Counted from the stretch's first letter, positions 3,466 to 19,108 are shown. The stretch: DNA of 32,000 bases from an uncultured bacterium (GCA_964565945.1 CAZMGY010000024.1:1-32000), one strand, 5' to 3'. The notes: generated from the sequence alone by a model not told the origin. Numbers and translations: made by a program.

Positions 3466-4608
3466 TTAAGGCTGAAAAAACGTCCGCAGCACATGAACAA
3501 TATACATCACGTCTTCCTCGGTCAAATCATAAAACAAAGGCAAACGCAATAATCGCTCAGATTCTAAAGTTGTCCATTGATCGAAGCCATGCATTTTTCC
3601 CCAAGTTCGACCTGCAGGAGCCGAATGCAGCGGTACATAATGCATCACAGCGCAAATATTATGGTCCTCCAAATAATCAATTAACGCTTGACGCTGATTC
3701 ATATCTCTAAGTTTAATGTAATAAATGTGTCCATTAGGAGAAACAATCTGGGGTCTTTGAAGAACCCCTTGCTGCTCCAAATCCTCTAACTCACGATGAT
3801 AAACTTGACACAACGCATGCCGCTGATCATTCACCTGATTGATCTGTTGCAATTGCGGCCATAAAAAAGCCGCCGAAAGTTCATTTAGCAAATAGGAGCC
3901 CCCAACATCGAGCCAACAATACTTGTCAACCACGCCTCGGTCGAATTGACTCCGGTTAGTTCCTTTTTTTTGCAAAATTTCGGCACGTTCAACAAGAGAG
4001 GCCTCATTTACTGCCAAAAGGCCTCCTTCTCCACAGGTGATATTTTTTGTTTCATGAAAACTTACGCAGCCCAAATGCCCTAGCGAACCTAAAGTTCGTC
4101 CTTGATAGTCCACACCAATCGCTTGCGCAGCATCTTCAATCACAAAGAGATCATACTTACTTGCCAGCTCCATCAAAGCCTCCATATCGCAAGGAACACC
4201 CGCATAATGCATAGGAATAATCGCCTTTGTTTTGGCTGTGATTGCTGTCTCAACTAGGGCTATATCCATGTTCATCGATGAAGGATCGACATCAATAAAA
4301 ACTGGAACCGCTCCACGAATTACAAAAGCATTGGCTGTCGAAACAAACGTGTATGATGGCATAATGATTTCATCACCAGGTTGAATCTCGATCAAAAGAG
4401 CGGCAAACTCTAAGGCCTGACTGCATGACGTCACCAAACAAGCTTTGGGCACACGCATCTCAGATTCAAACCACTGCTCACACTTTTGAAAATAAGCATG
4501 CCCTGCTGATAGCTGCCTCTGTCGAATGGCATCTTGAACACACGCCTCTTCACCTCCTAAAACAAGAGGTTTATTAAAGACTATCCGTCCCCGAACAATG
4601 GCTTTCAT
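3466..4608 (-). CDS. wecE: dTDP-4-keto-6-deoxyhexose 4-aminotransferase (DegT/DnrJ/EryC1 family, WecE-like)
   Basis: Long collinear matches to my recollection of E. coli WecE: IIMPSYTFVSTANAFV, FHETKN (PLP lysine), KGTNRSQF, VDKYCW, YYIKLRD, ESERLLRLPLFY. Confidence 0.8.
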   Translation of the reverse strand: MKAIVRGRIVFNKPLVLGGEEACVQDAIRQRQLSAGHAYFQKCEQWFESEMRVPKACLVTSCSQALEFAALLIEIQPGDEIIMPSYTFVSTANAFVIRGAVPVFIDVDPSSMNMDIALVETAITAKTKAIIPMHYAGVPCDMEALMELASKYDLFVIEDAAQAIGVDYQGRTLGSLGHLGCVSFHETKNITCGEGGLLAVNEASLVERAEILQKKGTNRSQFDRGVVDKYCWLDVGGSYLLNELSAAFLWPQLQQINQVNDQRHALCQVYHRELEDLEQQGVLQRPQIVSPNGHIYYIKLRDMNQRQALIDYLEDHNICAVMHYVPLHSAPAGRTWGKMHGFDQWTTLESERLLRLPLFYDLTEEDVMYIVHVLRTFFQP

Positions 4609-4611
4609 TAA

Positions 4612-5400
4612 TTACCGTTCTCCCTTTAAAAAAGACATAACATTTCGATAAGCAATGTTCTCCAGTTTAACACTATCCACCCCCCGCGCCAAATATTCAA
4701 AACGTTGCCGAACCTTGTGATAGCTATATTCTGGAGAATCGGTACCAATGCATATTCGACGGTCGAAATGATGAAACAAAAACTTTAAATCCAAATCGAT
4801 TGAGCTTCCTTCATATTTGCACAACGTTAAAGACAGATCCAAAAGGACGTTATCATTAAACCTCACCAACTCCATATATTCCAAAACTCGCACATCACCT
4901 CCATGCACCAAAACCATCCGCACATGCGACACTGCCTTCAACAACTTAACCAACATACGTAGGGGGTCGTAGTCTGGATATCGCTCCCACTCACGGTGAC
5001 AATAGGTGCAAACAAATACGTTAAGCTTCTTGTCTGCCGCCAACGTGCACACATCCACAAGAATATCCCAGTCGTTTTGTAAACAAAAATCAGACAATCG
5101 CGGATGAATTTTGATCCCTTGAAACCCCAAGGCATGAATCTTATCCATCTCCTTAGCTTTGTCACTAACTCCAAAATCAAAGGCAGCAATCGGAATCATT
5201 GTTTCATATTTGCGAGCTTCTTCAATGAAGCTCGCATGACAATAACCATCTTGTCTTGGCAAACCTACCGCACAGCATCCCACGTAGTTATGATTTTGCA
5301 TCTCACGATCCACTTGCTCAAACGTAAGTCCTTGCCGCTGATTCAACCATGTTCCTGTTACCGTCGGATGCGCTAAAGCATCAAATAAGGGTAAAATCAT
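4612..5400 (-). CDS. metal-dependent TIM-barrel hydrolase (Amidohydro_2-like)
   Basis: Ordered ligand-like motifs FDALAHP, GIKIHP, VLVHGG, IGTDSP. Lies 3 nt upstream of wecE and 6 nt downstream of the ATP-grasp gene. Confidence 0.65.
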   Translation of the reverse strand: MILPLFDALAHPTVTGTWLNQRQGLTFEQVDREMQNHNYVGCCAVGLPRQDGYCHASFIEEARKYETMIPIAAFDFGVSDKAKEMDKIHALGFQGIKIHPRLSDFCLQNDWDILVDVCTLAADKKLNVFVCTYCHREWERYPDYDPLRMLVKLLKAVSHVRMVLVHGGDVRVLEYMELVRFNDNVLLDLSLTLCKYEGSSIDLDLKFLFHHFDRRICIGTDSPEYSYHKVRQRFEYLARGVDSVKLENIAYRNVMSFLKGER

Positions 5401-5406
5401 ATCTAA

Positions 5407-6549
5407 TCACTCCGAACTTTGAGCAATCAACGATTGCATCACGCGATTCATCGTTGTTCGTTCTTCAAAACCTAACAACATATTAGCCACATACTTATCG
5501 TACACAGAAGAATAAGCCGTCTCTTGCAGCTGATATTTATTAGCTTCATCAAGATTCATATGATTCGAACGAACCATAAACGAAGCAACATAAGGAGAGG
5601 TCTCGCCAGAGGAACTAAGCAGACCTTCCCATTCATGCCCCAAAGCCAACTCCACACACCAAGCTGTTAGATCATAACCCGATTGGTAAGCAATCGCCTG
5701 AGGAATAAAGTTGCCTCCAGCCCTTGGCCCTATCTCGATCACAAAGGGAGTTCCTTGTTTGTCAATACGCACATCAAAATTAAACGCACCATCGCCGTAC
5801 CCAACCTTATGCAATATGGATTGGATTATTTCGGTCGCCCGACTCAAAACCTCGGGGTCATGCGAACTGGGAAAAAATTCCGCAATCGGCTCCACAGCAT
5901 CATAAGTATTATCACAAAAACCATCGCCATAAGCGATATGAACAATTTTACCACGATAGACAAAACCATCTCCACACACCTGCGGACCTTGCTTCTCGAT
6001 AAAGTCTTCCACAATCACTTTCCCCTCAAAGGAATTAAGAAAGGCCCCATCCAAAGCCATTTCGATCTGTTTATCGGAGCGAACCACACTCACAGCCAAG
6101 CTTCCTGAACGATCACAAGGCTTAATCACATAAGGTTTTTCGCGCTTGTGACAATGCCTCCAAGCCGCACCAAGTGTGGAAAAACTCTGAAACGCTTGTT
6201 TTTGGATATAGCTTTCTTGCATAAACTGACGAAACCTCTCCTTATTGCACAAAAAATCGATAGACCTTCGTGAAGGACCTGGCAAATCCAAATGCGCCAC
6301 AAGTTCCACCATCGCGGGCACAGAAATATCGGAACCATAACTTAAAACACCGTCCACCTGTTCGTGTTGAGCAATCTCCAAAAGACGCCCAATGTTACGC
6401 GTACTCACGTTATAACTCTTATCCGCCAAAGCATGTCCTGGGTTGTCGGTGCGATTATCACAGGTCACCACGCGATATCCCTTTCGGAAAGCGTACCAAA
6501 TGGGTGGCAATTGAAAAGCCGCCGCACCTAACAACATAAGCGTTTTCAT
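5407..6549 (-). CDS. ATP-grasp carboxylate-amine ligase
   Basis: Rossmann-like N-terminal pre-ATP-grasp region (MLLGAAAFQLP), then YVIKP, IVEDFIE and a FNFDVRI..EIGPRAGG ATP-grasp core. Confidence 0.7.
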   Translation of the reverse strand: MKTLMLLGAAAFQLPPIWYAFRKGYRVVTCDNRTDNPGHALADKSYNVSTRNIGRLLEIAQHEQVDGVLSYGSDISVPAMVELVAHLDLPGPSRRSIDFLCNKERFRQFMQESYIQKQAFQSFSTLGAAWRHCHKREKPYVIKPCDRSGSLAVSVVRSDKQIEMALDGAFLNSFEGKVIVEDFIEKQGPQVCGDGFVYRGKIVHIAYGDGFCDNTYDAVEPIAEFFPSSHDPEVLSRATEIIQSILHKVGYGDGAFNFDVRIDKQGTPFVIEIGPRAGGNFIPQAIAYQSGYDLTAWCVELALGHEWEGLLSSSGETSPYVASFMVRSNHMNLDEANKYQLQETAYSSVYDKYVANMLLGFEERTTMNRVMQSLIAQSSE

Positions 6550-7211
6550 GAGACATCCCTCATAGCTAAATACAAGCCTTGATTAACAATCACCGAAGAA
6601 TGACATAATACATACTCAGCTTCGCCAACTACATCAAGGCATATCGCATCACTTCTTTCCCAGTCCGAGCTAGTATACTTAAGCACGTACGTATGCTTTA
6701 AGCCCTGCTCACTTGGCTGCCACTTTTGAAAACTGGTGTACCACATATGCCATTTGTCCTTATGCTTGATCACACACATAGAACCTGTGCCCAAAGGATC
6801 ATGATCACTACGATCCATCATCGGAACTCGTGACACACGTTTCGCCGAACCAATATGATTCTGAAAGGGAGTTAAAATAGTCGGCATCCATCCCGTATAG
6901 TAGAGAAACAACTTTTGTTCGCTTTGAACCACAGAAGGATAAGAAACATCATTTTCATCAAAATAACCCAACTCTCCAGGAATTAGCATAGGTTCTCTAT
7001 CTAAGCCTTCCTATTGCCAAACATCCTTCTCAATGCTAAAATGTCCTCGTCCAATATGAGAGTGATTAAAAGCATCACGCCCAGTTAAATATACTATCCA
7101 TTCACTACTGACAAGGCTTTCATGTACACAGGTCAAATCTGTTTTGTCTAATTAAGACATCTCTTGAGTTAGTTTAAGAATATAACTTAAAAGCATCCAT
7201 ACCTGTGCCAT
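6546..7211 (-). pseudogene. beta-propeller glycosidase-like gene (GH32/43/130-style blades) interrupted by two in-frame stop codons
   Basis: One frame reads from ATG 7209-7211 to the stop at 6546 with a TAA at 7152-7154 and a TAG at 7011-7013, and no frameshift. Blade-like repeats: WIVYLTGRD..HIGRG, LFLYYTGW..HIGSA, WHMWYTS. Only the last 147 codons form an intact ORF. Confidence 0.5.
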
Positions 7212-7214
7212 CAC

Positions 7215-7997
7215 TTACCTCACATCTAAATCAACAGAGTTAGCCACACGTTGAGAAGTTTGCACTTTATTGACCGCAAACAAAGCCATCCACCGCCCAC
7301 GAAAGCTTAACCAATCCAAAGGAACCTCGGGATCAATCGCTTCGACCCCATGAATCATATCAGCTTTAAAAAAACAAATATCCTCTACAGCTAAATGATC
7401 ATCCACAGACAACTTGTTACCACCTTCGGACTCAAGCACTAACCCCCCCGAATTAAAATCAGCCCCCTTGGTCGATAAGTTCATAACGGCAACCACGGTT
7501 TGGTGAAACCCTATGGGGTCACGGTGCTTATTCAAATAGCCCCCTCCGCGAGGATAGAACTGAAACGCTATTTTAGACACACAACCTTGATCGTCGTGAT
7601 GACCCAAAAAACGCGTCTCTTCAAAGCCATTGAGACGGTTTTTTAAACGTAAGACAGGATCCATCAGTCCAAACAGGTTAAAAACGTCTTGGTTCCAAGG
7701 AAAAAAAGTAAACTGATGAAACATTCCCTTCACATACGAATATTCACATTCACGATTAACACGATGAAAGTTCGGGCTTCCTACAGCAATCGGCTGATAA
7801 TTAGGCAACGAAGCCTGAGCAATGCCTTTTAAATACACACACATCTCCTCAGCCAAAGAGTGTGGGGTCACCTGTCTCACAAACAGCAACTCTCCATTAT
7901 GAACAGCATCTTGAACCTCACTCAAAACCTTGGCATCACCCAATAAATCTTCACACGCAACAAACGAATGAATGCTCCAGAATCCAACACTAATCAT
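7215..7997 (-). CDS. putative Fe(II)/2-oxoglutarate-dependent oxygenase
   Basis: HxD..H facial-triad candidates (YLNKHRDP, then ADMIHGVEA) and a distal RGRW arginine. AGGGG Shine-Dalgarno 7 nt upstream of the ATG. Confidence 0.5.
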   Translation of the reverse strand: MISVGFWSIHSFVACEDLLGDAKVLSEVQDAVHNGELLFVRQVTPHSLAEEMCVYLKGIAQASLPNYQPIAVGSPNFHRVNRECEYSYVKGMFHQFTFFPWNQDVFNLFGLMDPVLRLKNRLNGFEETRFLGHHDDQGCVSKIAFQFYPRGGGYLNKHRDPIGFHQTVVAVMNLSTKGADFNSGGLVLESEGGNKLSVDDHLAVEDICFFKADMIHGVEAIDPEVPLDWLSFRGRWMALFAVNKVQTSQRVANSVDLDVR

Positions 7998-8057
7998 TAA
8001 TCTACCCCTATCCTACACGGTAAGTTCTTAAGGTAGGGTCAGAAACACGGAACTGAC

Positions 8058-8330
8058 TTACACTTTTGAAAGCAACACTACAAAAAAACCTAAACATTGT
8101 GCCAACTTGGATTCTAAATCAATTAAGGGCTGATCTTCGAGAAAAACAGGATGATCAATTTGCTGATTAATCGCCCACCACACACATCCAGAAGGATTCT
8201 TCCCCGAACAACCCCATAGGTGTGAATCAAAGACAAATACCAATCCAGGTTCAACCTCGACCTGAATGGCCTGACTTTCTAACACAGGGTCAACGATCAA
8301 ATTAAAAAAGAAATCCTCCTGATTCATCAT
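8058..8330 (-). CDS. hypothetical 90-aa protein, possibly a dioxygenase C-terminal remnant
   Basis: Co-directional ORF within the cluster. VFVFDSHLWGCSGKNPS weakly resembles the PhyH-type 'fd..llHgSg.N.S' segment, but the His is displaced. Flanked by non-coding gaps of 60 and 218 bp. Confidence 0.3.
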   Translation of the reverse strand: MMNQEDFFFNLIVDPVLESQAIQVEVEPGLVFVFDSHLWGCSGKNPSGCVWWAINQQIDHPVFLEDQPLIDLESKLAQCLGFFVVLLSKV

Positions 8331-8548
8331 GCCACAAATTTACCCCTATCTTGCAAAAAATCGCCCCCATAATCGTTCATTTTCTGACCTCAACAAGCAT
8401 CTATTTTATCCCGCATCATCTTCAGTCCCTCTTAGAAAAAAACATTACTAAGCACTCAAAAACCATCACGTTCCAAAAGCACCCTAGGGTAATCCAAATG
8501 AGAGACATGTTGGCATTGATTCAATCTTGGATAGGCTTGCTAAGCTTT

Positions 8549-9478
8549 TCATAGGGTCTCCCTCACAAAATAAAGTGGCTGTTCTTTCACATGTTCAAAC
8601 ACTTGAGCCAAATACAAACCCAAAATGCCAATAAAGAACAGAATCAATCCAGTCGACAAAAGTATCATCCCCATAAGAAACATCCAGCCCTCTTGAAAAT
8701 ACTTAAAAAAATGAGTGCCCAGCAAAACAAGCAAATAAACAAAAGCTCCAAACATCAACAAAAACCCAATAGCAATCGAGCCATATAATAGACGATACGA
8801 CTGAGAGGTTAAGCCATTGATCGCATGCCGTATCAATTTTGGTAATGAATAGCTACTTGAACCAGCAAAACGATTTTGATGCACCACAGGAATACTGGTT
8901 TGACGAAAACCTAACCACTTAAGCACCATAATAAAATGTTGATTACGATTACGTACTTGCCGATACGCCTCAACCACCGATCGCGTTAACATACAAAAGC
9001 TACCCACTTCGATAGAATACGAATCACGACGTCCCAACCATCGATTCACCCATTCAAACAAACGTGCACAAGCATTCTTAAAAAAGTAATGGGCACGATT
9101 TTCTTTGAAGGTGAAAACAATATCGTTACCCTCATCCAGTTTGGCCATCATCCGACTTAAATCCTGAGGGCTATCTTGAAGATCTCCATCCATCACCACC
9201 ACCCGCTCGCCCAAAACCACATCCAAACCTGCCATAATCGAAATGTGTTGACCACAGTTATGGCTCAAATCCAAGCCCCTGACGCGCTCGTCTTGATTAG
9301 CAATCCTCTTGATCGTAGGCCAATCTTTGGAATGACCCGCATCGTTCACAAAGATAATCTCAAACGACAAGTCCTCTAATTGCTCACACAAACGACGATG
9401 AAGCTCGTCCAAACAGTCGTAACAATAATATACGGGAATTACAACCGAAAGATCGCAGGAGCCCTGTCTTTCAAACAT
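8549..9478 (-). CDS. polyprenyl-phosphate glycosyltransferase, GT2 family (ArnC/GtrB/DPM1-like)
   Basis: VVIPVY, FVNDAG, NCGQHISIMAG, MDGDLQDSP, GSSSYSLPKLI, and two C-terminal TM helices. Collinear with my recollection of ArnC. Confidence 0.85.
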   Translation of the reverse strand: MFERQGSCDLSVVIPVYYCYDCLDELHRRLCEQLEDLSFEIIFVNDAGHSKDWPTIKRIANQDERVRGLDLSHNCGQHISIMAGLDVVLGERVVVMDGDLQDSPQDLSRMMAKLDEGNDIVFTFKENRAHYFFKNACARLFEWVNRWLGRRDSYSIEVGSFCMLTRSVVEAYRQVRNRNQHFIMVLKWLGFRQTSIPVVHQNRFAGSSSYSLPKLIRHAINGLTSQSYRLLYGSIAIGFLLMFGAFVYLLVLLGTHFFKYFQEGWMFLMGMILLSTGLILFFIGILGLYLAQVFEHVKEQPLYFVRETL

Positions 9479-9481
9479 ACC

Positions 9482-11389
9482 TTATACCTCTTTTTTCAAC
9501 CTTAATACGTCTATAAAACCTTCGTCAATAGGTTGGTACATTTTATCATGAACATAATTCTGATGCACATACGCCCACAAACGTGGAAACTTATCCTCAG
9601 GGGTTAGACCATCCACCTCCATATCCCACTGTATCACGATAAGCTCGGGTGCCTGGCGCCTTGCAATATCAATGACGCGCTGCTCATCACGCGCATTAAC
9701 AATATTGTAGGGGCTTATATGATTCTTCAACATAAACGGTCGATCTGCCAAAAATGATAACAACGGCACATTCCCAAACAAGTAAATCTTTTCATCAGAC
9801 AAGGTATGCTTTTGCAAATACGCAACCACATAATCCAACTCCTGGGCATAAGCTTCATTAAGTACAAAGCCTTTTGCTCGTCGAGATTGCACATAAGCTT
9901 CTCCCCCCATTAACTCAGGTTTCCCCCATCGATTCATCCCTGAGCCAATCGACTTTTTCAAATACGAAACGCTCACAGCGCGTTGACCTAAACCCCTATA
10001 AACACTAACAGATACAATCATACACACAGCTAAAGCAAGATAACGTCTCCAAGATGTCTTCAACAGAGATAAAACATCATCCAGCAATGCCGCAACAACA
10101 ATCATGAGAGGAATTCCATCCAACAGAAGCGACTCCATCCCAGCACGGTACAACAAGTGAATAAACGACAACAATGCCACCACCCATAACCCTATCGTCA
10201 AAATCAAACGCACATTTCGCGGTCCGTGAATCCATCTCCACATAAGCATAAATCCACTGAGCGACATCACTACATGAGGCGAATAATAAACAAAAATCTT
10301 TTTAACAATAGCTAATGGAGCTAAACCTTTGGCTTTAAGCAAAGAAATCGTGGGATAAGCCAAACAATTATGTCCCCAAAAAGCCGCTCCATTCACATCC
10401 ACCTTAGGCCACAACCAAGTCCATTCGATCCAACCCAACACATGGCACAAGCCTAAAAATAATCCAGCTCCCAATCCCCCCACAAGCAAAGATAACACAG
10501 TCTTGCCCACCAGTCGCCAACGCGAATTATTTTGCCCACTCACATAGAAAAAGCCCATCACTAATACAGCCAACAAAGCCACATTTGCTCGTTCACTCGC
10601 AAAAAATTTAATAAGCACCAAGCCAATTCCAACACAAATCAAATAATAAAAGTGCTTGGTGTGCATATACTGATATACAAACAACAAAGGTAAACACGCA
10701 ATCGTGTAACGAATCAAAGAGCTATGAAATGTAGCTTTAAAAGGAAATAACAGAACAAACATAGCCACAAGAACATACCACCGCAAAGGCCGAAACGCCA
10801 CTTGCCTTTGCAATAACGTATAAATCAGATAAAACCCCAAGAGGTTTAAAAAAGCTATGTAAACTGTAAATACAATCAGTTTGCTCCCCCAGAGATGCAT
10901 TAGACCCACGACAGGAAGCAAATTCAAAATGCCATACACATAGCTAACGTCTTGATGCTGAAGCATCGCCTGAATCACGCGAAGATAAGCTCCTGTTTCA
11001 AAATAAAGCTGAAAAGGATTGCCGCCAGGCATATTTATATATAGAAAATCAGGGTAGACATACAAAAAAGCCCCTAAACTCATCACCATCAGAGTCATCC
11101 ACCATCTATCGCAAGGAACCTGTGCGTTTGTATCCCTTAAAAGAAGTCTCGTGAACGACTTTTGATGCCAGGCATACAAAGCCACCCCAAAACCTGGAAC
11201 TATCACTATAAACGCATAATTGAGAAAAATTTGAATCATCGAAACTTTATTAAGGATGGAATCACTGATCATTCCTTGTTGACGCGCCATTTCAACATCC
11301 CACTGCATAGCTGGCATTAAATAGAGCACAAGAGCCGTTAATCCAAAAAGTAACCCAAAGGCCCTCCAATCCTTATGGTTAGGAATCAT
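9482..11389 (-). CDS. polytopic membrane protein with a C-terminal soluble domain; putative GT-C glycosyltransferase (ArnT/PMT-like)
   Basis: About 12 or more hydrophobic segments, then a ~150-aa soluble tail. An acidic first loop (QWDVEMARQQ) follows TM1. Ends 3 nt before the GT2 start. Start moved to the ATG at 11387-11389 because GGAGG (11395-11399) sits 5 nt upstream; the ORF-track TTG would overlap that site. Confidence 0.5.
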   Translation of the reverse strand: MIPNHKDWRAFGLLFGLTALVLYLMPAMQWDVEMARQQGMISDSILNKVSMIQIFLNYAFIVIVPGFGVALYAWHQKSFTRLLLRDTNAQVPCDRWWMTLMVMSLGAFLYVYPDFLYINMPGGNPFQLYFETGAYLRVIQAMLQHQDVSYVYGILNLLPVVGLMHLWGSKLIVFTVYIAFLNLLGFYLIYTLLQRQVAFRPLRWYVLVAMFVLLFPFKATFHSSLIRYTIACLPLLFVYQYMHTKHFYYLICVGIGLVLIKFFASERANVALLAVLVMGFFYVSGQNNSRWRLVGKTVLSLLVGGLGAGLFLGLCHVLGWIEWTWLWPKVDVNGAAFWGHNCLAYPTISLLKAKGLAPLAIVKKIFVYYSPHVVMSLSGFMLMWRWIHGPRNVRLILTIGLWVVALLSFIHLLYRAGMESLLLDGIPLMIVVAALLDDVLSLLKTSWRRYLALAVCMIVSVSVYRGLGQRAVSVSYLKKSIGSGMNRWGKPELMGGEAYVQSRRAKGFVLNEAYAQELDYVVAYLQKHTLSDEKIYLFGNVPLLSFLADRPFMLKNHISPYNIVNARDEQRVIDIARRQAPELIVIQWDMEVDGLTPEDKFPRLWAYVHQNYVHDKMYQPIDEGFIDVLRLKKEV

Positions 11390-11483
11390 ATCTGCCTCCA
11401 ATATGTGGTGCTAAAAAAGGTTTAAATAGCGAGGGAATATCATAACTGGGAAACAAATCACACACATTGTGCCCACGTTCGAG

Positions 11484-11555
11484 CTAAATGAACAGCGAAT
11501 AAATCACCACAAAGGCCACAAGACTCATCACTGGAATGGCAATTAAAAAAGACAT
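11484..11555 (-). CDS. candidate 23-aa hydrophobic micro-protein (MSFLIAIPVMSLVAFVVIYSLFI)
   Basis: ATG at 11553-11555 with GGAG 7 nt upstream, giving a single predicted TM helix. Too short to appear in the ORF track. Confidence 0.25.
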   Translation of the reverse strand: MSFLIAIPVMSLVAFVVIYSLFI

Positions 11556-11993
11556 TCACTTACTCCTTATATTAAGTGTCCAGTATATCAAATTTATTAG
11601 GCAGCTATCAAGGTTTCAAAAGTTGGGCGATACTCTTGCATTTTAGCAGAGTTAACGGCTACCTAAGACTCGGATCAGTTGCAAATTGCAAGCTTTGATA
11701 CGGCTGCTGTTGAAGCACACATTCAACAAATCCTTGATACTAAAGTAATTCAGCATTTTGGTTCCAGGTAACAACTTTTATGGATTACACATCCATTCAA
11801 TCATCCACTAGGATTTTAAATGCTCTTTAGCCAAAGCAAAGTCAGACCCCCAGCGATCCAGAGAAGCCACAGGCATTTGATCGCCCTGAATATGAGCGTT
11901 CCCATAATCTAAGCAGTCCGCAAAGAGCAACAACTTTCCAGCATCGTACAACTCTTTTTTCTGATCTTCTTGGACAAAACCTATTTTCTACGT

Positions 11994-13877
11994 TTATTCA
12001 GGCATTTTCACACTAGAATCAACCTTGACTAACCCCATCAAAGCCGTCGTGATCGCCTCGGCTTCGGAATCACTGAATCCAAAATCCGGCATGATCAATT
12101 TTTCTAGCGGATTAAGGATTTTTCCATGATCAAAACCACGTGGATTTTTAATTTTATTAAATAACCAATCATGCTTGGTGTGAGGAATATCATGTCTAAA
12201 ACCAAAGTCAAACTGATGCAAAGTTTTACTAGCAATGCCATTCAATTCACCTCCAATCGGTAAAGCATCTTCCATACCCTCCACCTCATGACACGATGCG
12301 CACCCATAATAATTCACCAACTTCTCACCACTAAAAAACTGCTTTTCTTGAATGCTCATTTGTGTCAACTTCTCTTTCGACTGATCTTCGGTCAGCACTT
12401 TATTCATAAAGTCTAGAGTGATTTGATCTAAAATCTTGTGATCTAAATCAGGTACATTTTTCTGACCCAAAGATTTATCTGTTTGACTCATAAGATAAGA
12501 CGTAATATCAGCAGCTTCTTGATCGCTCAAACGCATATCAGGCATTGTAGTCGCAGGATGATAACTTTGTGGCTCTTTCAACCAATTGAATAACCACTTC
12601 GCATTTGTTTTTGATCCCATATTCAAAAGATTAGGACCCTGCTCACGAGTCAAATCTTTAAGAGTCAAATTTCTCTCTTGACCTATACCAGATTGAACTT
12701 GATGACAGCTAGAACATCCTGGACCAGCAAGCAACTCTTCACCTTTCACAGGATCACCTTTAACGGGAATTTCTTCCATATCATAGGTTTTGCTTTTTTC
12801 GTAAAGAAAAGCTTTGATCGCATGAATTTCTTGCTCTCCTCGACGCACCGACTCGGCATTGCTGTTATTGGCTAAATTAAAATAAGAAGGCATCCATGTG
12901 TTATGGCGAAAACTTTTAGGATCATGAATCCAATGATAGATCCACGTATCTGTGGTTAACTTGTCCGCCATTTTCTTTAAGTTAGGTCCAGGACGATCGT
13001 AGCTGGCAAACTTATCCATCTTATGACAAGCATCACACCCCGATTGCGCTATCAAGCGAAGACCCAAGTTAAGTTTTTCGGCACCTTTAATTGATGTTTT
13101 TGGGCTATGACATTGAAGACAGCTCGCTTCAATGTGTTTTTTAGGTAACATAGGTTGATCCCACTCAGCCATCGGATGCCAGTCATATTTTTCCTTCCAC
13201 TCTTTGGCTTGCTCGGGGCTATTCGGTGTATGCACCGAACTTTGGAACGATGTTCCCTGACCACGACCTTGATGACAAGATGTACAAGAAGATCCTTGAA
13301 TCGGATGAGGAGACTCACTCGACAAATAAAGCTCTAAGTTAGGATGTGTCCGGTCAGGCTGCGGCATATTCTCATAGCCTTTTTTCATAATCCCTTTGTG
13401 ACAAGAAGTACAGAGCTCCACTTTAAGAACTTTGGAAAAATGGAGATCACCCTTAATGTCTTTAACCGCCCTTCGATCAATTTTATCATAAGGGTTCAAC
13501 ATATCAAGAACAGGCAAGTCGCCCACAATTGATCCCAAGTTGTTTTGAACATCCATCGAACCAAGATCAACTTTTTTCAACTTTCCTTCCAAAACATTTT
13601 TTTGCACCTCAACAACCCGTACATCTCGCCCCGCCTTTTTCAATTCCGAGGCTGTTTTAAGTTTGTCTACCTCCTGATCGAGCAACTCTTTGGTCTGTGC
13701 CGATTCAAACTTACGAAATTCCTTCTGATAAGTTTTCCATTCATTGTTGTAATCTTTAAAGAAAATGATCAGAATCAATGCTAACAACAAAGAGGCAACA
13801 ATAAGAAAGCACTTTCCCAATGAGTTTAAACTATAACAACTTTTTGGCCATTTGTTTTGATTTCGTTTGCTCAACAC
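11994..13877 (-). CDS. membrane-anchored hexahaem c-type cytochrome
   Basis: Six CXXCH motifs: CTSCH, CTSCH, CLQCH, CDACH, CSSCH, CASCH. N-terminal TM helix followed by a coiled-coil-like segment. Three C-terminal class-I-like modules each carry a downstream MP motif. GTG or TTG start after GAGGG. Confidence 0.85.
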   Translation of the reverse strand: MLSKRNQNKWPKSCYSLNSLGKCFLIVASLLLALILIIFFKDYNNEWKTYQKEFRKFESAQTKELLDQEVDKLKTASELKKAGRDVRVVEVQKNVLEGKLKKVDLGSMDVQNNLGSIVGDLPVLDMLNPYDKIDRRAVKDIKGDLHFSKVLKVELCTSCHKGIMKKGYENMPQPDRTHPNLELYLSSESPHPIQGSSCTSCHQGRGQGTSFQSSVHTPNSPEQAKEWKEKYDWHPMAEWDQPMLPKKHIEASCLQCHSPKTSIKGAEKLNLGLRLIAQSGCDACHKMDKFASYDRPGPNLKKMADKLTTDTWIYHWIHDPKSFRHNTWMPSYFNLANNSNAESVRRGEQEIHAIKAFLYEKSKTYDMEEIPVKGDPVKGEELLAGPGCSSCHQVQSGIGQERNLTLKDLTREQGPNLLNMGSKTNAKWLFNWLKEPQSYHPATTMPDMRLSDQEAADITSYLMSQTDKSLGQKNVPDLDHKILDQITLDFMNKVLTEDQSKEKLTQMSIQEKQFFSGEKLVNYYGCASCHEVEGMEDALPIGGELNGIASKTLHQFDFGFRHDIPHTKHDWLFNKIKNPRGFDHGKILNPLEKLIMPDFGFSDSEAEAITTALMGLVKVDSSVKMPE

Positions 13878-13999
13878 TACACCCTCAACTTATTTGGCAC
13901 CAAAAAAAATATACTTTAATAAACAATCATAAAACAAATTACAGTTTATTTTCCAAACCTCTTTGTCTTATCCCTAGCAACTTTAAATTATAGAATCAC

Positions 14000-15082
14000 T
14001 CATACCGTCTCCTTAAGCACTTCAGATTGAGATGAAGCCGCTACCTGATTAGAACCAAACTCCTTCATTTTTTCCAACTTGGTATAAAATTCACTGATTT
14101 TTCGATCGATAATACTATAAACATCCTTAATCGCTGTTTTACGTCGCTGATAGTTTTGTTCGAGAGTCGCTCCCAAATCATCTATGGCAAACAAAGCAAG
14201 TTGATCATACTGAGCCACCTGAGGATCAATGTTACGTGGCATAGAAATATCCATTAAAAGCAACTCTGAAGTCCGATGCCTCATCACGTGCTCCATCACT
14301 TCGCGATCAACCACATAATGAGGCGCATTCACCGCACAAATGCAAAGGTTGACATCTTGCAAAACCCGTGTTAACTCGAGAAAAGAAACAGCTTCAGCCT
14401 GGAATTTCTCTGCCAAAGCCATAGATTTATCTCGGGTTCGGTTCATGATGTATAGGGTATCCAACGAGCGTGTTGTCAATTGCTTAGCTGCAAGCTCTCC
14501 CATTTGACCCGAGCCTATAAGCAGAACTTTTTTACCACTTAAGCTTCCCAAGTATTTTTCGGAAAAATTAACAGCAGCCCAGCTAACAGAGGTCCCTCCA
14601 TAGCCAATTTCGGTTTCCTCATGCGCCAATTTCCCCATACGCACCGCTACTCGGCACAACAAATTGAGTGCACGGCTAAGCATATTCGACTCCTGAGCTT
14701 TGGCAAAAGCTTCTTTTACTTGGCCTAAGATTTGTTTTTCTCCTAAAATTAGTGAGTCCAAGCTTGATATCACCTTAAACAAATGCTCAATGGCATTATC
14801 TTTGGATTGACGATAAAAATAATTTTTGAAATCACTATGCCATTTCTGTTTTTTGACTTGAAAAAGTGTTTGTAGAACGAATTCGGCATCAAGATTGCTT
14901 CGCACCATGTCAACATAGATTTCAATACGGTTGCAGGTACTCACCACAAAGGCACCCAAAACTTCGTTCCTCAGCTTGAGCTGGCTAAGCAACAATTCTT
15001 GCTCAATCGCCGAAAGACAAAACTTTTCTCTAACTTCAATTGGCGCCGTTTTATGACTAATACCAATAACATCTAAATGCAT
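14000..15082 (-). CDS. hemA: glutamyl-tRNA reductase (short form, 360 aa)
   Basis: GISHKTAPIEVREKF, the STCNRIEIY catalytic Cys motif and an LIGSGQMG NADPH-binding site. Confidence 0.9.
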   Translation of the reverse strand: MHLDVIGISHKTAPIEVREKFCLSAIEQELLLSQLKLRNEVLGAFVVSTCNRIEIYVDMVRSNLDAEFVLQTLFQVKKQKWHSDFKNYFYRQSKDNAIEHLFKVISSLDSLILGEKQILGQVKEAFAKAQESNMLSRALNLLCRVAVRMGKLAHEETEIGYGGTSVSWAAVNFSEKYLGSLSGKKVLLIGSGQMGELAAKQLTTRSLDTLYIMNRTRDKSMALAEKFQAEAVSFLELTRVLQDVNLCICAVNAPHYVVDREVMEHVMRHRTSELLLMDISMPRNIDPQVAQYDQLALFAIDDLGATLEQNYQRRKTAIKDVYSIIDRKISEFYTKLEKMKEFGSNQVAASSQSEVLKETV

Positions 15083-17735: not shown

Positions 17736-19108
17736 GTACTCCCTCTTTAAGCAAAGAGTTGATTCAACAATACAACGTACAAGGGCCTAGGTACACGAGT
17801 TATCCAACCGTACCTAATTGGTCCGAAGATGTAACTTATCAAGATTACAGTCTAGCCCTTCAAAACATGGGGAAAGACAACCAAGCTATCTCACTTTATA
17901 TTCACATCCCCTACTGTGAAAAACTTTGCACCTTTTGTGGATGCATGGTCAAAATCCGTCCCAATAAACCCTCTGTGGGCGATCATTATTTGGATATCCT
18001 ATTCAAAGAGCTTGACCTTATTGATCAAAACGTTCAGAAAAAAAAAGATGTGTTTCAATTCCATATTGGAGGAGGCACGCCCAATTTTTTAAGCATCGAC
18101 CAAATGCAACGCTTATGGGATCGTCTAGCTCAAAGCTTTAATATCGACGCCGATGGAGAAATTGCAATCGAAATTGATCCACGCACCGTTTCACACGAGC
18201 AACTTAAGCACTACCGCAAGTTGGGCTTCAATCGTATTTCGATGGGAATTCAAGACTTTGAGCTCAAGGTTCAAGAAGCCATTAATCGCATTCAACCTTT
18301 CAACTTAGTCCAAAGTATCTTTGCCACCTGCCGCGAACTTGATTACGAATCAATCAACTTTGATCTTATTTACGGCCTGCCCTTTCAAACCCAAAAAACA
18401 TTTCTCAATACCGTTGAACAAGTTAATCAATTGCGCCCAGATCGGATTGCGCTTTACAGCTTTGCGCATGTCCCTTGGCTTAAAAAACACCAAAAACTAA
18501 TTGATCTGGCATCACTTCCCAAGCCAGAAGATAAGCTCGACATTTTTCTTAAGACCCGCCAGTTTTTCCTAGAGCACGATTACGATGCTATTGCTATGGA
18601 TCATTTCGCTCTCAAAAGCGATGCTATGGCTCAAGCATTTCATCAAGGGGCGCTATATCGCAACTTTATGGGCTACACCCTAAGGTACACGCAAGATTTT
18701 ATTGGCCTGGGTCTTTCCTCGATTGGCTTTGTGCAAAATACCTTTGTCCAAAATCATAAAAACCTTAACCACTATCAATCCGCTCTCGAAAAAGGGTTCC
18801 TCGCTACCGAACGCGGCAAAGTTTTGCATCAAGATGATCAAATACGCCTATGGATCATCAATGCCTTTATGTGTCAGTTTTCGCTCAACACACAAACATT
18901 TGAACAAATATTCGGTCTATCTTTTGGCGACTATTTTCAAGACGAACAAGCCCATATTCAAAACTGTCTCAAAGAAGGCCTCCTTACACAAAACGGCTAC
19001 ATTTACCAAGCCACGGAACTCGGCAAACTCTTTATTCGAAACATCTGTATGGGATTTGATGCCTATTTCAAGCCATCCAAAGAACAACGATTTTCACAAA
19101 CCATTTAA
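17732..19108 (+). CDS. hemN: oxygen-independent coproporphyrinogen III oxidase (radical SAM)
   Basis: YIHIPYCEKLCTFCGC CxxxCxxC motif, GGGTPN, and RYTSYPT at the N-terminus. Overlaps hemE as ATGA. Confidence 0.9.
   Translation: MSTPSLSKELIQQYNVQGPRYTSYPTVPNWSEDVTYQDYSLALQNMGKDNQAISLYIHIPYCEKLCTFCGCMVKIRPNKPSVGDHYLDILFKELDLIDQNVQKKKDVFQFHIGGGTPNFLSIDQMQRLWDRLAQSFNIDADGEIAIEIDPRTVSHEQLKHYRKLGFNRISMGIQDFELKVQEAINRIQPFNLVQSIFATCRELDYESINFDLIYGLPFQTQKTFLNTVEQVNQLRPDRIALYSFAHVPWLKKHQKLIDLASLPKPEDKLDIFLKTRQFFLEHDYDAIAMDHFALKSDAMAQAFHQGALYRNFMGYTLRYTQDFIGLGLSSIGFVQNTFVQNHKNLNHYQSALEKGFLATERGKVLHQDDQIRLWIINAFMCQFSLNTQTFEQIFGLSFGDYFQDEQAHIQNCLKEGLLTQNGYIYQATELGKLFIRNICMGFDAYFKPSKEQRFSQTI

Follow-up and report, generated by a model that had tools for sequence, protein, structure and literature searches.

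We lean toward reading positions 3466-11389 of the window (the whole 32-kb stretch of DNA analyzed here) as a widespread, uncharacterized amino-sugar tailoring cassette, present here in partly decayed form and combined with an enzyme pair for delivery on a lipid carrier. The most likely function of the operon is permanent N-acylation and oxidation of dTDP-Fuc4N, followed by decoration of the envelope at its periplasmic face via undecaprenyl phosphate, with the chemistry being putative and the acceptor a candidate. The features of the locus are as follows:

3466-4608, minus strand, predicted WecE-type aminotransferase (380 aa)
4612-5400, minus strand, predicted amidohydrolase (262 aa)
5407-6549, minus strand, predicted ATP-grasp ligase (380 aa)
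6546-7214, minus strand, propeller remnant (putative GH130-like pseudogene)
7215-7997, minus strand, predicted 2OG oxygenase (260 aa)
8006-8383, minus strand, putative PhyH remnant, containing a 90-aa ORF at 8058-8330
8549-9478, minus strand, predicted GT2 (309 aa)
9482-11389 (ATG start, 635 aa) or to 11401 (TTG start, 639 aa), minus strand, predicted GT-C membrane protein
11402-11993, minus strand, upstream intergenic region of ~590 nt, with the likely operon promoter

The span 3466-11389 is confirmed as a tightly packed minus-strand operon, much as the first-pass annotation had described it. From the WecE end to the membrane protein, successive features are first separated by 3 and 6 nt, next overlap by 4 nt (ATGA), and are then spaced by ~0, 60, 218 and 3 nt. 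In 33 unrelated genomes, the same families lie within 10 kb of one another, which indicates a grouping beyond chance. Upstream, the best sigma-70-like site lies on the minus strand at 11611-11582 (TTGATA, an 18-nt spacer and TATACT, 10/12 matches, with an extended TG); the total of such sites is no greater than in shuffled sequence, so the promoter evidence is weak. The window holds no flippase gene, and none of its ORFs of at least 100 aa was recognized as RmlA/RmlB, Wzx/Wzy, WaaL or GtrA/ArnEF, each scanned ORF having another assignment or no match. This agrees with the absences claimed earlier, which also covered equivalents of ArnA and ArnD.

With respect to the individual proteins, the family assignments of the first-pass annotation were all borne out. 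Direct Pfam/NCBIfam matches were obtained for DegT/WecE, ATP-grasp and GT2; the amidohydrolase, the 2OG oxygenase and the GT-C protein lacked matches of their own and were placed through a homologue and profile, through fold and motif, and through fold, respectively. The WecE protein matches Pfam DegT_DnrJ_EryC1 (E 1.7e-88) and passes two NCBIfam cutoffs, those of PRK11706 (532 bits, cutoff 375) and TIGR02379 ECA_wecE (516 bits, cutoff 435), whereas the ArnB model scores merely 232 bits against a cutoff of 631. It is 46-50% identical to the aminotransferases of related cassettes and contains the sequence SFHETK, which we take to resemble the PLP-lysine motif of the family. These matches identify a predicted WecE-type PLP aminotransferase of the dTDP-4-keto-6-deoxyhexose type, whose expected reaction is most likely the conversion of dTDP-4-keto-6-deoxy-D-glucose to a dTDP-4-amino-4,6-dideoxyhexose, Fuc4N being the likeliest product.

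The ATP-grasp protein matches Pfam Dala_Dala_lig_C and ATP-grasp_4, and its best hit in a single-sequence PDB search is the L-amino-acid ligase 3vot (E 6e-12). Its family profile (A6) aligns with 4dim (E 7e-61), 3vot (E 2e-56), BacD (E 2.5e-37) and the L-amino acid ligase 4wd3 (E 1e-36). Identity is 54% to the homologue in related locus L007, 40% to that in L008, 38% in L032 and 39% in L043, and residues K103, K143, E272 and R276 are invariant. The Pfam, PDB and profile matches agree in predicting an ATP-grasp carboxylate-amine ligase that is nearest to L-amino-acid ligases.

The adjacent 262-aa protein has no Pfam or NCBIfam family match of its own, its sole Pfam line being a sub-threshold Radical_SAM hit (17.8 bits vs a 29.5 cutoff). 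It is, however, 70% identical to the L007 homologue and 50% to the L008 homologue, and the latter matches PF04909 at 41.6 bits (cutoff 26.4). Its family profile (A5) finds the PDB entries 3irs (E 3e-11) and 3cjp (E 9e-11), and ACMSD weakly. Homologue and profile thus concur on a predicted Amidohydro_2-like TIM-barrel metalloenzyme, with D7, K97, H99, H166, D188 and D221 invariant. Amidohydro_2 also takes in decarboxylases, lactonases and hydratases, and 3irs and 3cjp, the nearest solved relatives, are both without assigned function; given these two points, a role in trimming or cyclizing the product is a guess.

The 260-aa oxygenase likewise has no Pfam, NCBIfam or PDB sequence match. Its AlphaFold2 model (pLDDT 94.8) retrieves PHD2, bacterial prolyl-4-hydroxylase, IPNS and H6H as the top PDB entries in Foldseek (E ~1e-7, probability 1.0), and 27-30 homologues share H158, D160, H216 and R235 without exception (HxD...H...R). 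Fold and motif together support the earlier call of a 2OG oxygenase, and we assign the modeled protein to the double-stranded beta-helix 2OG/Fe(II)-dioxygenase fold, in a family without a Pfam or NCBIfam model.

What had been listed as an orphan ORF turned out differently. This 90-aa ORF clusters with 258-287-aa proteins of six related loci, one of which (L036) matches Pfam PhyH at E 2.2e-22. A tblastn search of the window with the L032 PhyH protein finds residues 176-274 alone, across two reading frames, such that ~175 of ~270 codons are gone and a frameshift is present. Positions 8006-8383 are accordingly annotated as the apparent C-terminal remnant of a PhyH-family 2OG dioxygenase of ~270 aa, which implies two oxygenases in the ancestral cassette. 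The GT2-PhyH-oxygenase adjacency is shared by the window and L032; in L019 the same three genes are neighbors, but the oxygenase is encoded on the other strand from GT2 and PhyH. The beta-propeller had been recognized as disrupted from the outset: it carries in-frame TAA and TAG codons in one reading frame and, relative to 16 intact homologues, is missing ~90 N-terminal and ~75 C-terminal residues. Its intact relatives (~308 aa) match Pfam Glyco_hydro_130 (E 1.6e-7), and the profile (A4) matches the beta-1,2-mannobiose phosphorylase 7fip (E 1.9e-13), marking 6546-7214 as a putative pseudogene of a GH130-like five-bladed beta-propeller.

Two genes of this copy of the cassette, GH130-like and PhyH, are dead, and with two of eight genes lost the whole pathway could be disappearing. 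The operon may be a non-functional relic whose six intact ORFs have yet to acquire lesions, a reading that we regard as distinctly unlikely. Besides the two dead genes, the same lesions are fixed across the six independent assemblies in which the locus occurs (99.93-99.99% identity), and RmlA/RmlB and flippase genes are missing nearby. Nonetheless, no truncation affects the six remaining ORFs, which retain every family-invariant residue, catalytic ones included, while their neighbors have decayed heavily, a contrast that implies selective retention. Neither lost gene is obligatory, given that functional-looking relatives also do without the propeller (L026 and L043) or, in most loci, without PhyH. 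With both genes decayed, the product made here is probably simpler than that of the ancestral cassette.

In terms of delivery, the GT2 (Pfam Glycos_transf_2, E 5e-21) can be aligned over its entire length with GtrB sll0501 (5ekp, E 1e-39) and ArnC structures (E ~1e-36), as its earlier description as ArnC-like would predict. It scores 161 bits (E 3.7e-47) with NCBIfam PgfS and 133 bits with ArnC, both under the equivalog cutoffs, and displays a DGDLQD motif and hydrophobic C-terminal segments. We assign it as a predicted GtrB/ArnC-type polyprenyl-phosphate glycosyltransferase. The 635-aa membrane protein has no Pfam, NCBIfam or PDB sequence match, and a word-indexed search returned only the protein itself, whereas an exhaustive HMMER search recovered 80 relatives at ~24% identity; 12 of 44 aligned members of this family match PMT_2. 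The AlphaFold2 model (pLDDT 85, pTM 0.89) has a soluble alpha/beta domain at the C-terminus, and Foldseek places ArnT (5f15, E 7.5e-7) first, followed by DPY19, STT3, PglB, PMT and Emb. The family-invariant E131, G133, Y152, G153, R227, E266 and R415 are all kept. The structural check proposed in the first-pass annotation thus supports a GT-C fold with ArnT as the best PDB match, and the modeled protein is classed as a GT-C-fold integral membrane glycosyltransferase. Its family occurs in none of 33 related loci and appears to be lineage-specific; for most of the large membrane proteins in those loci, GT-C identity is not demonstrable.

Those 33 loci, anchored on the oxygenase with co-occurrence scored within 10 kb, provide the comparative evidence. 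WecE, ATP-grasp, amidohydrolase, oxygenase and GH130-like genes, usually with GT2, are adjacent in 33 species genomes from more than 10 phyla; carriers include Bdellovibrionota, Cyanobacteria, Verrucomicrobia, Planctomycetes, Nitrospira, Actinobacteria, Bacteroidota, Legionella, SAR11, Acidobacteria and others. Pseudoroseomonas cervicalis PL22-11A and Hyella patelloides LEGE 07179 are cultivable organisms with a homologous cassette. By tblastn, the amidohydrolase is present in 23 loci, the propeller in 21, ATP-grasp in 19 (23 by ORF clustering), GT2 in 18 and DegT/WecE in 21 (14 at 38% identity or above). L032 (Bacteriovoracaceae) even preserves the window's order of GT2, PhyH, oxygenase, propeller, ATP-grasp and amidohydrolase, with WecE following on the opposite strand. 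Methyltransferases and an HMGL-like aldolase accompany the cassette. Among the 25 long loci, GT2 and the propeller occur together in 11, GT2 alone in two and the propeller alone in four, a co-occurrence that our proposed route leaves unexplained. RefSeq labels core cassette members "hypothetical" (the plasmid WecE homologue is named rffA), and literature searches found no description of the cassette. The genes are therefore strongly co-conserved, contrary to one outcome that would have counted against the first-pass annotation, and the view that their combination is undescribed stands.

In relatives, the cassette lies inside polysaccharide loci with RmlA/RmlB, Wzx, Wzm/Wzt, GT4 and pyruvyl transferase genes (RmlA and/or RmlB being beside it in L020, L027, L032, L033 and L037), which suggests a sugar-tailoring module used by O-antigen-like loci. 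The earlier separation from O-antigen loci needs qualifying, as the gene set does sit in polysaccharide loci, none of which is annotated or characterized. This same context among GT4 enzymes, Wzx-type flippases, pyruvyl transferase and Wzm/Wzt exporters could mean that the cassette feeds an ordinary, cytoplasmically assembled O-antigen or capsule, with GT2 and the 635-aa protein serving a separate decoration. We consider this very improbable: the 32-kb window has no polymer-assembly genes, GT2 and GT-C lie 3 nt apart and share an operon with the tailoring genes, and GT2 accompanies the cassette in 18/33 loci, next to PhyH/oxygenase in L032 and L019.

A further alternative, which we judge rather unlikely, is transient protection in the style of Arn. 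Here ATP-grasp would acylate the dTDP-4-amino sugar, formate (PurT-like) being one candidate, to pull an unfavorable transamination forward and feed GT2, and the amidohydrolase would deacylate the undecaprenyl-phosphate-linked sugar as ArnD does, with the result that the sugar arriving at the envelope is cationic and carries a free amine. The series WecE, GT2 and ArnT-fold GT-C parallels ArnB/ArnC/ArnT, and no other gene would fill the ArnA and ArnD roles. In the window, L007, L008, L032 and L043, the genes for ATP-grasp and the amidohydrolase are direct neighbors or overlap; both occur in 19 long loci, with no amidohydrolase in the absence of ATP-grasp. The N-terminal half of the ligase also matches the PurT model (E 1e-15), but the full-length family is nearer L-amino-acid ligases (E 2e-56) than PurT (E 1e-27), and the amidohydrolase is not a NodB/ArnD-type deacetylase. 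Moreover, six long loci and one plasmid retain the ligase, amidohydrolase and oxygenase with no GT2 within 10 kb, a pattern that would not be expected of an enzyme whose substrate is a lipid-linked intermediate. Some of these loci use Wzm/Wzt export; the trio without GT2/GT-C is seen in the Wzm/Wzt-type L028, L035, L040 and L042 and in plasmid pL11-D. Such a cycle also leaves no role for one or two oxygenases, the methyltransferases or the HMGL-like aldolase. Of the Arn-like logic originally proposed, loading and transfer from GT2 to GT-C is retained, whereas the protection cycle, offered alongside permanent N-acylation, becomes the weaker option. Persistence of the trio without GT2/GT-C instead places it at the nucleotide-sugar stage, before lipid loading.

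Taken together, these observations suggest the following route for permanent N-acylation. RmlA/RmlB, presumably encoded outside the window, would supply dTDP-4-keto-6-deoxy-D-glucose, which the WecE-type enzyme would transaminate at C4 to dTDP-Fuc4N; the enzyme family is established, and the stereochemistry is presumed. ATP-grasp would then activate a carboxylate, probably of an amino or hydroxy acid, and form an amide with the 4-amino group. In steps whose order is not fixed, the dioxygenase may oxidize the acyl/aminoacyl group or the sugar, and the amidohydrolase may trim or cyclize. GT2, assigned by family and with a presumed donor, would take the completed sugar off dTDP and load it onto undecaprenyl phosphate. 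After flipping, the ArnT-fold GT-C would place a single sugar onto a periplasmic acceptor, for which LPS core, lipid A and protein are candidates.

Products of the kind that this cassette could make are known. N-acylated amino-dideoxyhexoses with aminoacyl or substituted 5-oxoprolyl groups occur in Escherichia coli O123, Vibrio anguillarum V-123, Plesiomonas shigelloides O74, Vibrio cholerae O5 and Campylobacter coli LOS, where amide-linked, hydroxylated, methylated, amino-acid-derived groups are seen on Qui4N, Qui3N and Fuc3N (PMC10609480); for C. coli, such biosynthesis has been called unknown (bioRxiv 10.1101/050328). Those O-antigen species are not represented among the 33 loci, and the link is offered as a hypothesis.

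Among characterized systems, Arn (Pmr), which adds 4-amino-4-deoxy-L-arabinose to lipid A, shares a DegT-family 4-aminotransferase, a GT2 aligning full length with ArnC structures (E ~1e-36), a GT-C whose best PDB fold match is ArnT, and the gathering of amination, lipid loading and periplasmic transfer in one operon. In contrast to Arn, the aminotransferase here is of the WecE type (dTDP-6-deoxyhexose) and falls below the cutoff of the ArnB model, and the GT-C shows no relation to ArnT at the level of sequence. The ArnA dehydrogenase/formyltransferase, NodB-type ArnD and ArnE/F are absent, and in their stead are ATP-grasp, the Amidohydro_2-like protein and one (ancestrally two) 2OG oxygenases, which also occur elsewhere without GT2/GT-C.

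The bactoprenol-linked systems, namely GtrA/GtrB/GtrV (O-antigen glucosylation), CsbB/YfhO, GtcA-type and streptococcal PgfS, similarly pair a GT2 with a polytopic GT-C-fold transferase for predicted single-sugar transfer outside the cytoplasm, and the GT2 here is nearest to GtrB sll0501 (E 1e-39) and PgfS (E 3.7e-47). To our knowledge, these systems use common UDP-sugars and have no sugar-tailoring enzymes, whereas here a dedicated amino-sugar pathway is joined to GT2/GT-C and the window has no GtrA-type flippase. With the WecE/WecD branch of ECA (dTDP-Fuc4NAc), the locus shares an aminotransferase that passes the WecE equivalog models; it differs in lacking a WecD-type acetyl-CoA N-acetyltransferase, WecA, WecF, WzxE and WzyE, with N-acylation predicted to be ATP-dependent through ATP-grasp. 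Finally, the ligase profile aligns full length with the L-amino-acid ligases BL00235/3vot, BacD and 4wd3 (E 2e-56 to 1e-36), and the shared chemistry would be an acyl-phosphate followed by an amide bond. Identity to these enzymes is low, and the context here points to an amino sugar, rather than a second amino acid, as the acceptor.

The locus at 3466–11389 on the minus strand probably encodes a lipid-carrier single-sugar decoration system of known type that is fed by a dedicated nucleotide-sugar pathway. The tailoring cassette occurs widely without annotation, contains families that lack a Pfam model and, in the window copy, has partly decayed. The operon is laid out as follows:

3466–4608, minus strand, aminotransferase (380 aa)
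4612–5400, minus strand, 262-aa protein (amidohydrolase)
5407–6549, minus strand, ATP-grasp protein (380 aa)
6546–7214, minus strand, disrupted reading frame (propeller)
7215–7997, minus strand, 260-aa protein (oxygenase)
8058–8330, minus strand, 90-aa ORF
8549–9478, minus strand, GT2 (309 aa)
9482–11389, minus strand, membrane protein (635 aa from an ATG; 639 aa from a TTG at 11401)

These ORFs lie on the minus strand throughout and are closely spaced, the gaps in gene order being 3 nt, 6 nt, a 4-nt ATGA overlap, ~0 nt, 60 nt, 218 nt and 3 nt. The first-pass annotation had described a tightly packed, co-directional gene set, a description that is confirmed here and extended by co-conservation. 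The operon G+C content (0.40–0.44) is the same as that of its flanks, both of which are made up of housekeeping genes: a c-type cytochrome, hemA, hemY, hemE, hemN, a GT9 heptosyltransferase-like gene, murE, ftsI, rsmH and mraZ on one side, and an SCO1/SenC protein, an FNR-like flavoprotein, a ferredoxin and a DUF423 protein on the other. The absence of RmlA/RmlB, Wzx/Wzy, WaaL and GtrA/ArnEF genes, also noted at first pass, was borne out over the full 32 kb. Promoter and terminator scans returned site counts that were not above shuffled expectation, so that the operon boundaries are drawn from gene spacing. Specifically with respect to authenticity, the region 890–21390 is present at 99.93–99.99% identity in six independent SRA-derived assemblies (SRR19984991, SRR23257867, SRR12008133, SRR12008131, SRR12008127 and SRR23257892); because all six share both the locus and its lesions, the locus is genuine and has become fixed in a natural population, and the organism recurs across samples.

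The next gene upstream, across a 590-nt intergenic region from the operon, is at 11994–13877 (minus strand); its 627-aa product combines a SoxX-like c-type cytochrome domain with several CxxCH motifs. The GT9 heptosyltransferase-like gene (19105–20229, minus strand) overlaps the end of murE within a cell-division gene cluster, an odd place for an LPS-core-type enzyme, and its product falls under all NCBIfam equivalog cutoffs; a GT9 gene is also found near P0106, a distant relative of the 635-aa protein in related locus L044. Plus-strand G–C skew is uniformly and strongly negative across the window at 1–32000 (−0.14 to −0.30), and most genes of the window lie on the minus strand. Neither tRNA genes nor Rfam matches were detected in scans of the 32 kb. 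Two ORF pairs, 321–917/694–966 (DUF423/ferredoxin) and 28852–30027/29879–31300 (an unassigned 391-aa ORF/leucyl aminopeptidase), overlap by >140 nt, probably as a result of over-extended upstream start codons.

The two genes at the upstream end of the operon have the features of a pair that loads a sugar on a lipid carrier and then transfers it. Residues 2–306 of the 309-residue GT2 align with the polyprenyl-phosphate glucosyltransferase GtrB sll0501 (5ekp; E 1e-39), and full-length alignments were obtained with three ArnC structures (E ~1e-36). The protein matches Pfam Glycos_transf_2, and its sequence contains a DGDLQD motif and hydrophobic C-terminal segments. It scores 133 bits against the NCBIfam ArnC equivalog, for which the cutoff is 529, and also misses the cutoff of the PgfS equivalog. 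On this sequence evidence the GT2 is a putative lipid-carrier loader of the GtrB/ArnC type, and a member of that superfamily rather than an ArnC orthologue.

The 635-aa protein, like the 262- and 260-aa proteins, was assigned to its family by profiles and structure prediction, sequence searches being insufficient. It has no match in Pfam, NCBIfam or PDB sequences, a word-indexed search returned solely the protein itself, and an exact-sequence lookup matched the ATG-start form and not the TTG-start form. An exhaustive HMMER scan recovered 80 relatives at ~24% identity, and 12 of 44 aligned family members match PMT_2; the resulting family profile gave nothing significant against PDB sequences. 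The AlphaFold2 model (pLDDT 85, pTM 0.89) has ArnT (5f15) as its best Foldseek match in the PDB, with an E value of 7.5e-7 and a TM-score of 0.45–0.51, and the top 23 matches are all GT-C proteins (ArnT, DPY19, STT3, PglB, PMT and Emb). Residues E131, R227, E266 and R415 are invariant in the family and retained in the window protein. Taken together, these observations support a predicted GT-C fold, which is the outcome that the first-pass annotation had anticipated for an AlphaFold and Foldseek check. In related loci, neither an hmmsearch with the window GT-C family nor hhalign comparisons with large membrane proteins (those of L008, L032, L012 and L033) revealed a convincing relation, and Pfam PMT_2 was found in only two of the large membrane proteins of these loci. 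The gene neighbourhoods of two distant relatives of the GT-C protein were uninformative.

In terms of sugar synthesis, the aminotransferase passes the WecE models PRK11706 (532 bits, cutoff 375) and TIGR02379 (516 bits, cutoff 435), and scores 232 bits against the ArnB model PRK11658 (NCBIfam), under the cutoff of 631. The ATP-grasp protein has weak Pfam matches. A profile built from 24 cassette homologues is closest in the PDB to 4dim (E 7e-61) and the L-amino-acid ligase 3vot (2e-56), followed by BacD (2.5e-37) and the L-amino acid ligase 4wd3 (1e-36), with PurT far behind (1e-27). Judged by its conserved ATP-binding Lys/Glu/Arg residues and its full-length similarity to L-amino-acid ligases, this protein is a candidate ATP-grasp carboxylate–amine ligase. 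It belongs to a subfamily (window, L007, L026, L032 and L043; 38–54% identity) whose loci lack an HMGL-like aldolase gene, which suggests that the acid substrate is a common metabolite.

The 262-aa protein does not match PF04909 at E ≤0.01, and searches of Pfam, NCBIfam and the PDB returned only one sub-threshold Radical_SAM line. A 50%-identical homologue matches Pfam Amidohydro_2 with 41.6 bits (cutoff 26.4), and the family profile matches 3irs and 3cjp, structural-genomics amidohydrolases without known function, at ~1e-10. The invariant residues of this family are D7, K97, H99, H166, D188 and D221. The 260-aa protein has no match in Pfam, NCBIfam or PDB sequences, and its family profile likewise gave nothing significant against PDB sequences. 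Its AlphaFold2 model (pLDDT 94.8) has 434 fold matches in the PDB at E ≤0.001, the first being PHD2, a bacterial prolyl-4-hydroxylase and IPNS. Residues H158, D160, H216 and R235 are invariant across 27–30 homologues, and constitute the classical facial triad (H158/D160/H216) and the 2OG-binding arginine (R235). The double-stranded beta-helix fold of the model and this motif identify the protein as a predicted 2OG/Fe(II) dioxygenase. The family guesses made from the unaided sequence were all correct, that for the 262-aa protein being supported through its homologue and family profile. A second, divergent oxygenase paralogue (~27–29% identity) is present in L008/L026, L027, L028 and L033; in L008/L026 it occupies 13727–14425, between the GT2 gene and a PMT_2 GT-C gene.

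Two genes of the window copy have decayed. The reading frame at 6546–7214 contains TAA and TAG stops in a single frame and, relative to 16 intact homologues (~308 aa), has lost ~90 N-terminal and ~75 C-terminal residues. These homologues match Pfam GH130 (E 1.6e-7) and the beta-1,2-mannobiose phosphorylase 7fip (E 1.9e-13), and the frame is therefore a pseudogene of a GH130-like propeller. An alternative genetic code was considered for the in-frame stops and rejected, as the stops are both TAA and TAG and all neighbouring genes are clean under table 11. The 90-aa ORF, initially taken for an orphan, clusters with PhyH-family dioxygenases of 258–287 aa. At 8006–8383 (minus strand), the last ~100 codons of a ~270-aa PhyH gene are left, with one frameshift and ~175 N-terminal codons deleted; the ORF corresponds to the C-terminal end of a PhyH-family 2OG dioxygenase and is a second pseudogene. 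Intact PhyH copies lie between the GT2 and 260-aa oxygenase genes in L032 and L019. Both genes are dispensable elsewhere, as the propeller is missing from L026 and L043 and PhyH from most loci, and their loss would simplify the product. The presence of two fixed pseudogenes could also mean that the whole operon is a decaying relic. We regard this as distinctly improbable, since the six intact genes keep all of their invariant residues.

To survey co-conservation, we scanned one genome per GTDB species with the oxygenase family as query, which yielded 33 loci, none of them from the window's own genome. Their hosts include Omnitrophota, Cyanobacteria, Bdellovibrionota/Oligoflexia, Bacteroidota, Planctomycetota, Actinomycetota, Nitrospirota, Verrucomicrobiota, Acidobacteriota, Melainabacteria, Legionella, SAR11 and Caulobacteraceae. 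Within 10 kb of the oxygenase gene, tblastn detected the amidohydrolase in 23 of the 33 loci, the propeller in 21, DegT/WecE in 21 (14 at ≥38% identity), the ATP-grasp protein in 19 (23 by ORF clustering) and the GT2 in 18. The recurrence of the cassette families that the first-pass annotation had proposed to look for was thus observed, and the cassette has spread widely, probably through horizontal transfer. Its closest relatives are found in Bdellovibrionota, and horizontal transfer makes these an unreliable taxonomic clue. Among the loci first examined around ATP-grasp homologues, the closest relative (L007) carries propeller, ATP-grasp, amidohydrolase and GT2 genes. Window order is retained in L032 (a Bacteriovoracaceae MAG) for GT2, PhyH, oxygenase, propeller, ATP-grasp and amidohydrolase, with WecE on the opposite strand, and GT2, PhyH and oxygenase are also neighbours in L019 (a Bdellovibrionaceae MAG). 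An Anaerolineales MAG (L008/L026) has a row of oxygenase, ATP-grasp, Amidohydro_2, GT2, oxygenase paralogue, PMT_2 GT-C and DegT genes, and this row is embedded in a locus that also encodes Wzx-type flippases, GT4 enzymes and a pyruvyl transferase.

Accessory genes of the related loci encode methyltransferases of class I and of the CmcI type, RmlA and RmlB, a DmpG/HMGL-like aldolase and its unassigned partner protein, Wzm/Wzt exporters, EamA-like membrane proteins of small size (restricted to four of the loci) and large polytopic membrane proteins that are mutually unrelated in sequence. The aldolase occurs in up to ten loci and its adjacent ~320-aa partner, without a Pfam match, in five; loci of this kind are L021, L022, L025, L033 and L037 (in the last at 11930–13935). 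A ~700-aa soluble protein, also without a Pfam match, lies beside the cassette in L013, L016, L020 and L029. Genes for an initiating transferase, Wzx/Wzy or Wzm/Wzt, and WaaL surround the cassette in several relatives. The initial statement that this is not a standard O-antigen locus accordingly holds for the window and does not extend to these relatives.

The cassette occurs in two flavours. In the first, the tailoring enzymes are joined by a WecE of 45–50% identity, a GT2 and the propeller, and in most cases by a large membrane protein. In the second, found in Acidobacteriota and some Alphaproteobacteria, a different DegT, CmcI methyltransferases and Wzm/Wzt accompany the ATP-grasp, amidohydrolase and oxygenase genes, and there is neither GT2 nor propeller. 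Across 25 long loci, GT2 is always accompanied by ATP-grasp and amidohydrolase, while the amidohydrolase is found without GT2 in six loci and the ATP-grasp protein without GT2 in ten. The propeller tends to go with GT2 (both in 11 long loci, GT2 only in 2, propeller only in 4), a co-occurrence that the proposed explanations leave unaccounted for. It is also conceivable that the cassette makes a sugar for an ordinary polymer, and that the GT2 and GT-C are unrelated to it. Against this stand the operon structure and the recurrent adjacency of GT2, and we consider it very improbable.

Building from these data, we propose that RmlA and RmlB, encoded elsewhere, would supply dTDP-4-keto-6-deoxyglucose, from which WecE, by family evidence, would form dTDP-Fuc4N. 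The ATP-grasp enzyme would acylate the 4-amine; its kinship with L-amino-acid ligases makes an amino or hydroxy acid the probable carboxylate donor. The oxygenase and amidohydrolase may then tailor the acyl group by hydroxylation, trimming or cyclisation. The GT2, again by family evidence, would load the product on undecaprenyl phosphate and, after flipping, the GT-C protein would move the sugar to a presumed envelope acceptor, in keeping with its predicted fold. The loci in which ligase and amidohydrolase occur without GT2 indicate that these two enzymes and the oxygenase act while the sugar is still soluble and nucleotide-bound, and count against the amidohydrolase as an ArnD-like enzyme working on a lipid-linked intermediate. 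The same loci bear on an Arn-style cycle in which the amine is protected and later deprotected. Such a cycle would fit the tight coupling of the ligase and amidohydrolase genes, the PurT-like N-terminal region of the ATP-grasp protein and the otherwise unfilled ArnA and ArnD roles. Nonetheless, we consider it unlikely, given that ligase and amidohydrolase occur independently of GT2 and that oxygenases, methyltransferases and an aldolase accompany the cassette. Of the Arn-like interpretation offered at first pass, the delivery half and the undescribed combination of tailoring enzymes stand, and the protect/deprotect option is disfavoured.

The chemistry of surface glycans governs serotype, recognition by phages and by the immune system, and cationic-peptide resistance. 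The structures of the N-acyl groups that decorate amino-dideoxy sugars are well documented, and to our knowledge many of these groups have no known genes. Such sugars are usually N-acylated by acyl-CoA N-acyltransferases, in place of which the cassette probably uses ATP-grasp chemistry. A compact and widespread cassette is thereby defined where current annotation reads "hypothetical", along with two families that lack a Pfam model, the dioxygenase and the GT-C of the window. Two delivery routes serve this cassette, namely single-sugar decoration through GT2 and GT-C, and polymer loci with Wzm/Wzt or Wzx, and its modularity offers a clear entry point for biochemical reconstitution. Cultivable carriers are Hyella patelloides and Pseudoroseomonas cervicalis, the latter a possible experimental model. 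In P. cervicalis the cassette, with no GT2 nearby, lies on the 129-kb plasmid pL11-D (NZ_CP115855.1, 118947–126245), where the genes are a methyltransferase, rffA, two hypotheticals, an "amidohydrolase family" gene, a hypothetical (the oxygenase homologue) and an "ATP-grasp domain-containing" gene. RefSeq thus labels the oxygenase homologue and two neighbours as hypothetical, and the cassette core is not functionally annotated. A description of the cassette was not found in literature on ATP-grasp enzymes with viosamine, WecE, DegT or GT-C, and none of the cassette enzymes appears in a paper on O-antigen genomics of Vibrio anguillarum.

With respect to known systems, the locus is not an Arn locus. 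In place of an ArnB-type aminotransferase for a UDP-4-keto-pentose it encodes an enzyme that passes the WecE models; the domains of ArnA (UDP-GlcA decarboxylase and N-formyltransferase) and ArnD (NodB-type deformylase) are found in no ORF of the operon or window, and the small flippase subunits ArnE/ArnF are missing from the window. The GT2 aligns with ArnC over its full length yet stays under the equivalog cutoff, and ArnT is the best fold match of the 635-aa protein without a sequence-level match. Nor is this an ECA or O-antigen locus, as WecD, WecA, Wzx/Wzy and WaaL are absent from the operon, and the 32-kb window likewise has no initiating transferase and no Wzm/Wzt. The delivery half would, by analogy, work like ArnC/ArnT or GtrB/GtrV, and the GT2 fits the GtrB/ArnC/DPMS type (N-terminal GT-A domain with DxD, C-terminal transmembrane helices) by its full-length homology to GtrB, its DGDLQD motif and its hydrophobic C-terminal segments. 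For the tailoring half no characterised counterpart was found, and L-amino-acid ligases provide the closest chemistry. The closest known products are O-antigen sugars with aminoacyl or substituted 5-oxoprolyl N-acyl groups (table, PMC10609480), the biosynthesis of which, in the case of Campylobacter coli, is described as unknown (bioRxiv 10.1101/050328); no species with these groups is among the hosts of the 33 loci. The accessory-rich cassette variants may give rise to such 5-oxoprolyl and aminoacyl groups, an attractive hypothesis. More speculatively, and with low confidence, the five enzymes (WecE, the L-amino-acid-ligase-like ATP-grasp, the Amidohydro_2-like protein, the Pfam-less dioxygenase and the GH130-like protein) could be a general means by which bacteria decorate amino-dideoxyhexoses with N-acyl groups derived from amino acids, in an ATP-dependent rather than acyl-CoA-dependent manner. 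The variants with HMGL-like aldolase, C-/O-methyltransferases and PhyH would then be the origin of the long-known hydroxylated and methylated 5-oxoprolyl (pyroglutamoyl) and aminoacyl O-antigen substituents, with the amidohydrolase acting as a lactam-forming cyclase.
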